From assembly GCA_037201605.1 (NCBI GenBank), contig JBBCGM010000002.1:272697-336696 (forward strand): a stretch of 64,000 bases of DNA, read 5' to 3'. The translations under genes were made by a program, and so were the position numbers. The stretch is from Candidatus Moraniibacteriota bacterium (GTDB taxonomy: Bacteria; Patescibacteriota; Minisyncoccia; Moranbacterales; UBA1568). Shown in pieces: positions 57,854-58,094 of this stretch. The notes beneath the pieces are model-generated. The model searched no databases. It saw only the letters and a list, made by a program, of their open reading frames with translations, and was not told where the DNA came from. Numbering within the stretch: the first letter of the stretch is position 1; each line of letters starts with the position of its first letter.

Positions 57854-58094
57854 TGCCCTTGACAAACCCCTCCTTTTCTGCTACTGTCTCCCTACATTGG
57901 ACATTAACAAACAACCCTGAGCCAAACATCCCCCTTTTCCCGTGGAAAAGACCTGTTTTGCTCAGTCCAGAGATCCTTTGTGGTCAGGGGGAATTTCCCC
58001 TGATTATGCGGCTGTTACCCCCGCCTTTCAGGAAATTGCCAAGCCTGATTGAAGTCCGCGCAAGCGTGACACCCCCATTTGGCTTTAGACGGAA
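57854..58094 (+). promoter_or_regulatory. CRISPR leader R (241 bp) with a promoter and structured, repeat-complementary segments
   Basis: TTGACA (57859-57864), a 17-nt spacer, then TACTGT (57882-57887). Hairpins: CTTTTCC-cgt-GGAAAAG (57934-57950) and TCAGGGG-gaattt-CCCCTGA (57984-58003). CATCCCCC (57927-57934) and GTTACCC (58014-58020) are complementary to parts of the repeat. Confidence 0.7.

Follow-up and report, generated by a model that had tools for sequence, protein, structure and literature searches.

Type V-F CRISPR systems are guided by a CRISPR RNA (crRNA) together with a trans-activating CRISPR RNA (tracrRNA) (PMC11127173), and both the single-guide RNA (sgRNA) of Cas12f and the omega-RNA of TnpB share a guide-pseudoknot-stem topology, wherein the pseudoknot is the repeat:anti-repeat 1 contact and the stem is the repeat:anti-repeat 2 contact (PMC10097598). 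The omega-RNA is located downstream of the TnpB gene (PMC10691335). Here, we describe a 241-bp leader that precedes a CRISPR array at positions 57854-58094 of a 64,000-nucleotide (nt) stretch of contig JBBCGM010000002.1 (assembly GCA_037201605.1, forward-strand positions 272,697 to 336,696) from a Candidatus Moraniibacteriota bacterium, this whole stretch being called the window and supplying all coordinates below. The leader is part of a Cas14e-type (type V-F-like) CRISPR locus in this bacterium of the candidate phyla radiation (CPR), and, judging from sequence comparison, it is very probably the gene for a scaffold RNA of about 200 nt and of the tracrRNA/omega-RNA kind. Cas14e-type proteins were reportedly named in 2018, and no description of Cas14e RNA components or function was found in the searchable literature, with the 2018 Cas14 paper and its supplement lying outside that search.

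A preliminary description of the window had proposed the leader as a built-in scaffold for pairing with the repeat, and this is supported here by a conserved promoter, conserved helices, repeat contacts that covary, and an effector with a TnpB/Cas12f fold, proteins of this class being users of long scaffold RNAs. The elements of the leader and its array are these:

57859..57887, plus strand: sigma-70-type promoter of the right scaffold-array unit (TTGACA at 57859-57864, 17 nt, TACTGT at 57882-57887)
57894..58094, plus strand: putative scaffold RNA (tracrRNA/omega-RNA-like), right copy, the whole leader downstream of the promoter
57918..57964, plus strand: helix P1, TGAGCCAAACA ... TGTTTTGCTCA, with a variable apical hairpin
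57982..58005, plus strand: helix P2, preceded by a conserved TCCTTTGTGG motif
58008..58024, plus strand: helix P3, GCGG/CCGC closing the 9-nt loop CTGTTACCC
58014-58020, plus strand: anti-repeat 1, GTTACCC, in the P3 loop
58028..58048, plus strand: helix P4, TCAGG/CCTGA, from the fold, with loop bases GCCAA at 58038-58042
58054..58070, plus strand: helix P5, GTCCGC-GCAA-GCGtGAC, from the fold and covariation
58071-58076, plus strand: anti-repeat 2, ACCCCC
58079-58083, plus strand: pseudoknot tail, TTGGC, after anti-repeat 2
58095..58336, plus strand: right CRISPR array, with three 40-nt repeats, three spacers of 31-32 nt, and a degenerate terminal repeat

Protein-based searches gave 45 related loci (designated by L numbers), from which 40 distinct leaders, several of them from close relatives, were compared. 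Nearly all of these loci have an array of 40-nt repeats downstream of the effector gene, usually after cas1, and ahead of the first repeat one common architecture extends over 240-300 nt. In order, this comprises a promoter, P1 (TGAGAAAAACA...TGTTTTTCTCA) with its variable apex, a TCCTTGTGG motif, the variable hairpin P2, a 4-bp P3 with a 7-9-nt loop, hairpins P4 and P5, an ACCCC-type segment, and a short tail. When the leaders were aligned with MAFFT, 89.5% of the cells were paired as against 74.9% in shuffles, the covariation score was 0.379 as against 0.127 (slid partners reached at most 0.105), and RNAalifold recovered, unprompted, both long-range leader:repeat helices. A covariance model (R1) was then built without the pseudoknot, and 42 full-length matches were re-aligned with it. 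Here, 91.1% of the cells were paired, 24 of the 42 pairs had changed on both sides, and the covariation score rose to 0.436 (0.125 for shuffles, with none of 500 as high). R1 matches the related loci, with that of Cas14e.1 itself included, and the scaffold RNA co-occurs strictly with one effector family. Within the window the model has exactly two matches, one on the scaffold (126.5 bits, E = 7e-32, this value being rough in view of the short model calibration) and one on a left copy at 55440-55688 of the minus strand (126.5 bits). The preliminary description had held that hairpins and an anti-repeat lacking conservation or covariation in homologous loci would speak against a scaffold; what we found is the opposite.

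The minimum-free-energy fold of the leader recovers P1-P5, though for the window alone it is only modestly better than shuffles (z = -2.3 for the array strand and -1.0 for the opposite strand). The signals from the window by itself are weak, and their significance comes from the comparative data. Two hairpins noticed earlier are both present and belong to conserved helices that show compensatory changes: CTTTTCC (57934-57940) with GGAAAAG (57944-57950) is the apex of P1, the sequence of which varies freely among the loci, and TCAGGGG (57984-57990) with CCCCTGA (57997-58003) is P2, wherein compensatory changes affect 6 of 8 pairs, both sides having changed, and 92.6% of the cells are paired. 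In L045, a relative with 78% identity, the P2 stem is wholly replaced (CCAAGCTT/AAGCTTCGG). P5 is 97% paired, with 4 of its 5 pairs changed on both sides. Moreover, G.U pairs occur at the base of P2 in 33-35 of the 40 sequences, and because these are valid on one strand only, the RNA would be read from the array strand. A transcript from the opposite strand was rejected, since its fold is the weaker one and the G.U pairs would turn into A.C mismatches.

More conspicuously, two segments of the leader covary, in the complementary sense, with parts of the repeat that lie about 110 nt and 60 nt away. The 40-nt repeat (GATCAACACCTCCCTCCTTCGGGAGAGGGGGATGGGTAAC) has full copies in the right array at 58095-58134, 58167-58206, and 58238-58277. 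Anti-repeat 1 pairs, as a pseudoknot, with the repeat 3' end GGGTAAC directly 5' of each spacer, and this pairing, which had already been pointed out from the window, holds up well across the family. Each of the 35 leaders in alignment A2 matches the final 6-7 nt of the repeat over 6 or more uninterrupted pairs. Ten sequence versions of this pairing occur: GTTACCC/GGGTAAC in the window, and elsewhere GTAGCA/TGCTAC, GTAGCG/CGCTAC, GTAGCC/GGCTAC, GTATCG/CGATAC, GTGCCGT/ACGGCAC, GTGTCAG/CTGACAC, GTACCG/CGGTAC, GTAACC/GGTTAC, and GTAACG/CGTTAC. Across the family, 97-98% of the anti-repeat 1 cells are paired (97.1% in the model-based alignment of the 40 distinct leaders), and the outermost pair is never broken, with 21 sequences having AU, 12 GC, and 7 CG. 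From the window alone, a 7-mer complementary to the repeat 3' end arises in about 2% of dinucleotide shuffles of the leader.

The preliminary description had left out two further contacts. Anti-repeat 2 pairs with the G-run of the repeat just upstream of GGGTAAC, and as helix 6 of the alignments it has 94-95.5% of its cells paired (95.5% in the same model-based alignment). One of its columns is CG in 26 sequences, AU in 8, UA in 3, and GU in 2, and its cognate versions include ACCACCC/GGGTGGT, ACCACTC/GAGTGGT, ACGTCC/GGACGT, and AGCCC/GGGCT. Together, the two anti-repeats cover the last 12-14 nt at the 3' end of each repeat. The other contact lies within the leader, where the tail TTGGC pairs with the P4 loop GCCAA. 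Here, matches of at least 5 nt are found for 28 of 40 cognate loops and tails as against 21% of non-cognate pairs, with compensatory versions such as GAGCA/TGCTC, GGTCA/TGACC, GATCA/TGATC, and AGCCA/TGGCT. We rejected, as a general feature, a pairing of the repeat 5' end GTAGCA with the repeat's own 3' end, which is confined to one sub-lineage and does not covary.

By analogy, the scaffold:repeat contacts would appear to reproduce the guide-pseudoknot-stem topology of the TnpB omega-RNA and Cas12f sgRNA. As in the type V-F systems (Cas12f/Cas14a-c), there is a miniature TnpB-derived effector, a long multi-helix tracrRNA-like element beside the array, a pseudoknot between the last repeat bases and an internal tracr segment, and pairing of the adjacent bases with the tracr 3' region (PMC10097598). 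Unlike in these systems, there are two very short anti-repeats (of 6-7 and 5-7 nt), the repeat keeps a hairpin of its own, and the scaffold fills the whole leader, sharing one promoter and one terminator with the array in a unit that is often an inverted duplicate. The scoutRNAs of Cas12c and Cas12d resemble the present element in their short complementarity to the repeat, though the scaffold described here is far larger and has an omega/Cas12f-like topology, and the Cas12c and Cas12d effectors (about 1,200 amino acids (aa)) belong to other Cas12 branches than the 420-aa TnpB/Cas12f-fold effector of this locus.

Alternatively, the leader could be an ordinary CRISPR leader, conserved for its DNA signals (promoter, Cas1 integration or host-factor sites) and giving no functional RNA. 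It does lie directly upstream of the first repeat and carry the array promoter, and cas1 is present along with differing spacers that suggest active acquisition. We nonetheless regard this explanation as very improbable, given that pairing is kept through two-sided changes in over half of the pairs, with G.U pairs that suit one strand only, and that loop and tail covary with a distant repeat in the complementary sense. Moreover, the element is kept in loci without cas1 between effector and leader (L021/L022, L045, L013, and L035). An even smaller chance, in our estimation, attaches to the leader regulating array transcription in cis, as a riboswitch or attenuator, or yielding an unrelated small RNA with that function. 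Such a role would be in keeping with a 5' region that is structured and precedes a transcription unit, and the P1 apex with a U-rich run was indeed flagged as terminator-like. However, this hairpin is the variable apex of P1 and has no conserved U-tract, and both the covarying pairing with the repeats and the strict co-occurrence with one effector family argue against such a role, as does the lack of an Rfam match. In the Rfam 15 scan (55000-58600, E <= 1) nothing relevant was found, the single match being a chance one to MIR847 (E = 0.54), far below the gathering score.

A different pairing had been put forward first in the preliminary description, namely that CATCCCCCTTTTCCCG at 57927-57942 is complementary to the repeat. 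This complementarity is real in the window, but it is not conserved as an anti-repeat in the family. The segment makes up the 5' arm and apex of P1, and its contiguous complementarity averages 5.03 nt with cognate repeats and 4.75 nt with non-cognate ones. If it were the main anti-repeat, tracr segment and repeat would form a long duplex like those of type II or V-B systems, and in its favor are nine contiguous pairs, an extension to about 21 bp, and an RNAduplex energy of -34 to -36 kcal/mol (z = -3.8 relative to shuffles of P1), along with similar sporadic cases in L002 (z = -4.9) and L037 (z = -4.0). However, the duplex energy is unremarkable in the closest relative L045 (z = 0.1) and averages z = -0.8 in the family, and since P1 (-15.3) and the repeat hairpin (-15.9) must both be opened, the net gain is about neutral. 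Such a duplex would, besides, need the very G-run with which the covarying anti-repeat 2 pairs. Among dinucleotide-shuffled leaders, about 6% contain nine complementary bases in a row. By the complementarity, duplex-energy (shuffles and non-cognate repeats), and opening-energy tests, 57927-57942 was therefore rejected as a functional anti-repeat, and a model with it as the main one seems to us quite improbable.

As a separate observation, P1 (57920-57964) and the whole repeat are complementary hairpin against hairpin (about -36 kcal/mol, z about -4), as is also seen in the unrelated loci L002 and L037/L040, though not in the closest relative. Possible explanations are that P1 and the repeat can adopt another conformation, that the P1 apex shares its ancestry with the repeat hairpin, or that base composition is responsible.

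As regards transcription, the promoter proposed for the leader in the preliminary description lies exactly where it had been placed, and TTGACN, a spacer of 16-18 nt, and TANNNT recur in 33 of the 40 homologous leaders, where P1 follows after 16-50 nt (mostly 23-38 nt); in the window it follows after about 30 nt. In L045 the spacer sequence between the hexamers differs while both hexamers are kept. Transcription of the right unit would start at about 57893-57896. There is no terminator between the scaffold and the array, and a single one closes the unit after the degenerate last repeat, so that both are probably transcribed as one precursor. The remaining transcription signals near the right unit are as follows:

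58342..58379, plus strand: intrinsic terminator of the right unit, AACCACC...GGTGGTT and a T-run, from the fold, within the 75-nt shared tail 58309-58383
57813-57841, minus strand: effector promoter from the promoter scan, TTGACA at 57841-57836, 17 nt, and CATATT with a TG extension

The effector and scaffold promoters thus stand back to back (57813-57864), with their -35 boxes forming the palindrome TGTCAA-N17-TTGACA.

The scaffold and array are present twice in the window, as inverted units that face away from a 2.1-kb minus-strand core consisting, in order, of the effector gene (57750 to 56488), a strong terminator, and a cas1-like gene. The left unit, identified by inverted-repeat comparison and R1, and the two genes of the core are laid out thus:

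55265..55720, minus strand: left inverted unit
55687-55715, minus strand: left-unit promoter
55480-55680, minus strand: left-unit putative scaffold, with anti-repeat 1 at 55554-55560 and anti-repeat 2 at 55498-55503
55440-55479 and 55368-55407, minus strand: full repeats of the left array, with a degenerate repeat at 55312-55339
55265-55339, minus strand: left-unit terminator tail
56488..57750, minus strand: effector gene, 420 aa, Cas14e-family TnpB/Cas12f-like by sequence and structure matches
55712..56410, minus strand: shortened cas1, about 232 aa, with the N-terminal domain absent and the E/H/D catalytic motifs kept

The units share a perfect inverted repeat of 281 nt (55440-55720 and 57854-58134) that includes the first repeat, and a second one of 75 nt (I2, 99% identical, 55265-55339 and 58309-58383) that contains the degenerate last repeat and the terminator. 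As had been noticed before, the two 241-bp leader copies are 100% identical in the window, whereas the arrays differ, every spacer being unlike between the left and right one (n = 5). That the copies are identical while all spacers differ suggests gene conversion and independent spacer uptake. The left unit lies downstream of the effector and cas1, a position occupied in all related loci, and in both units the scaffold (57894-58094 and 55480-55680) directly adjoins its array. The degenerate terminal repeat of the right array, which starts at 58310, is without the tracr-pairing 3' portion, and terminal repeats are truncated alike in L015, L017, L035, and L040. As the spacer-less repeat loses exactly this part, the arrangement fits the type V crRNA polarity of a repeat 3' end followed by the spacer.

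Inverted, outward-facing duplication of the unit around the effector (and cas1) occurs in roughly half of the related loci (L002, L006/L036, L007, L015, L018/L019, L020, L023, L025, L026, L029/L038, L033, L035, L041, and L045), with contig ends often cutting it, while the downstream copy is universal. Variants include two direct copies in L013, three copies in L007, and a pair flanking cas1 in L033. The whole 4993-nt contig of L020 is an exact palindrome with mirrored arrays, spacers included, which is possibly an assembly artefact. The second scaffold copy of L026 (3020-3252) seems to be decaying, since its loop GTAGCA no longer fits the repeat end CGCTAC of that locus and the sole repeat after it is degenerate. 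A role in scaffold dosage is conceivable for the twin inverted units, as is one as recombination or mobility ends. In the window, the -35 box of the left copy overlaps the cas1 stop codon. The island is flanked by POR and exonuclease VII genes, and L045 likewise has a POR neighbor and inverted leader copies, with no cas1. Elsewhere in the window, and not related to the CRISPR locus, is a 90-nt direct repeat (36836-36925 and 38086-38175, 74% identity, 1250 nt apart) that probably marks tandem paralogous genes.

The universal downstream copy invites comparison with the omega-RNA of TnpB (that of ISDra2 is also termed right-end element RNA, reRNA). The likeness includes the effector, whose best structural match is TnpB. 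It may also extend to the position of the universal scaffold copy downstream of the effector (after cas1) and to the contiguity of scaffold, repeat 1, and spacer 1, which can be taken as a single omega-like guide, though a repeat-spacer array follows. Unlike in TnpB loci, there is a multi-spacer array together with cas1, and the scaffold lies wholly outside the effector coding sequence. Nor is there a sign of membership in the IS200/IS605/IS607 elements: there is no tnpA, only two local copies lie in the 64 kb, and transposon ends were neither searched for nor seen. Both here and in L045 the locus sits between housekeeping genes. It might still be proposed that the leader works as an omega-RNA only, with leader, repeat 1, and spacer 1 forming the sole guide in cis and the other repeats being unused, or that the scaffold is a relic. 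Consistent with this are the 0-25-nt gap between scaffold and repeat 1, the omega-RNA-like position of the universal copy, and the single or degenerate repeat after copies in L026 and L033. On the other hand, the tracr-pairing 3' end is kept by all repeats except the last, spacer-less one, arrays reach about 10 repeats, and the Cas1 catalytic motifs are retained; continued covariation, moreover, argues against a relic. We thus judge this proposal improbable.

The effector is 100% identical to a protein (MEI9966723.1) from a Candidatus Moraniibacteriota metagenome-assembled genome, shares 37% identity with Cas14e.1 (QBM02463.1), and is matched over its full length by the PADLOC model Cas12_x1 'CAS-V-F effector' (E = 3e-93). 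Its family is rare, with 83 representatives at E <= 1e-30 among 1.84 billion. An AlphaFold2 model (predicted local distance difference test score, pLDDT, of 85.5) gave as top Foldseek matches ISDra2 TnpB (8exa, the best), AsCas12f, and dCas12f (9n9c), with E of about 1e-11, and OsCas12f and CnCas12f were also among them. An intact RuvC D-E-D triad with a zinc finger was not found. The RuvC-I aspartate is replaced by alanine in the motif 'ALGAS', which is well conserved across 38 members (G253 invariant; L252, A254, and S255 at 90% or more). Moreover, the sequence has no zinc finger, no CxxC, and no DxNAA or RuvC-III motif, and ends about 30 aa past the last RuvC strand. Because the RuvC-I aspartate, zinc finger, and RuvC-III are missing, the effector probably binds but does not cut, and it is predicted from its sequence to be nuclease-inactive; these absences also set it apart from the type V-F effectors.

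Several small TnpB and Cas12 proteins with a truncated or mutated RuvC domain are known for RNA-guided DNA binding, including dCas12f-sigmaE, TldR, Cas12k, and Cas12m/Cas12c (PMC13472631, PMC10691335). The appearance of dCas12f among the structural matches is a likeness to this group. However, the identity to dCas12f is about 10%, there are no sigma factor, helix-turn-helix, or Tn7 genes at the locus, CRISPR arrays and cas1 are retained, and the lineage is that of the CPR/Patescibacteria. A long tracrRNA with a short array is a feature of Cas12k.

Two further observations concern the effector. Residues 342-370 (VRSKxGKLADxxKxERGGxLGLNWAAQNTGS) are its most conserved stretch, yet the only long region with pLDDT below 50, which in the model is probably a loop that orders upon nucleic-acid binding. 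In addition, the last 15 or so codons (ENKIxMAxxLRxxFL) form, in some loci, a hairpin TGAGAATAAGATCCC...GGGATGATTTTCTCA that closely resembles P1 and gives weak RNA-model matches of 18-30 bits (L016 1875-1921, L039 2852-2898, L010 about 5973-6020, L043 about 2169, and the window about 56490-56545). Possibly an omega-RNA used to start inside the 3' end of the gene and left this trace, or else codon usage produced the hairpin by coincidence.

The shortened cas1, matched by Cas1 models only from about position 85-90 onward, likely starts at M16 (56410, MNALFL...), as in L016 and L039. The terminator after the effector gene (56441-56468, minus strand, 12-bp stem) covers the ATG at 56455 chosen by the open reading frame tool. 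Neither cas2 nor cas4 was seen in the locus, and this N-terminally shortened cas1 is its sole adaptation gene, which is another difference from type V-F. Cas12d, likewise from CPR bacteria, also has cas1 as its sole adaptation gene (10.1101/2023.12.12.571249, PMC10691335). With respect to targets, the first 20 nt of four of the five spacers had no exact match in IMG/VR, and 110 spacers from related loci had no match outside arrays in those loci or the window.

Taken as a scaffold RNA gene, the leader would operate in the following way. Transcription from the sigma-70-type promoter would yield one precursor containing both scaffold and array, wherein the scaffold would pair in cis with repeat 1 to give a natural single guide carrying spacer 1. 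Once freed, or when supplied from other transcripts, the scaffold would join in trans with the repeat-spacer units further along the array. With this composite RNA bound, the 420-aa TnpB-fold effector would be directed to DNA by the spacer, probably for binding and not for cutting. The shortened Cas1 would add spacers, and the inverted copies would be kept identical, probably through gene conversion.

Several points weigh against this picture. The -10 hexamer in the window is weak, and because only 3 of its 6 positions match TATAAT a generic promoter scan did not list 57859-57887. The anti-repeats are short (7 nt and 5-6 nt in the window), and as the repeat's own hairpin competes for the G-run, the net gain from anti-repeat 2 is estimated at about -1.6 kcal/mol. 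The pseudoknot topology is one proposed solely from covariation, while cis or trans use and the processing route are what we infer. The effector may have a rearranged active site, considering that D144 is invariant and that D274, D351, and E386 are nearly so. Lastly, the five spacers, with up to 9 mismatches allowed, had no protospacer elsewhere in the window that would indicate a target type.

Already known, for their part, are tracrRNAs beside type V arrays, the nuclease-dead dCas12f, TldR, and Cas12k (PMC13472631, PMC10691335), and the hypothesis of omega-RNA splitting. What is noteworthy here is the fused layout, the very short bipartite anti-repeats, the extra pseudoknot, the twin inverted units, the predicted-dead effector, and the shortened Cas1. 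The putative scaffold would supply the guide-RNA component of Cas14e, with its boundaries, fold, and two repeat contacts, and such a definition is needed for reconstituting the system or for designing an sgRNA for a 420-aa DNA-binding module. More generally, a long and perfectly conserved leader in miniature type V loci is a candidate RNA gene. The contiguous scaffold and array, with the universal copy in the omega-RNA position, also offer a test case for whether type V tracrRNAs and arrays came from an omega-RNA that was split and duplicated (PMC10097598, PMC10691335). Here, we tentatively raise the possibility, though a doubtful one, that the locus is a living 'unsplit' intermediate between omega-RNA and tracrRNA-plus-CRISPR, in which one promoter would give a single RNA whose first repeat-spacer guides in cis and whose subsequent ones guide in trans, and which, with a predicted cleavage-dead, TnpB-sized effector and with spacer uptake by a shortened, Cas2-less Cas1, may serve as an adaptive, binding-only system akin to CRISPR interference (CRISPRi).

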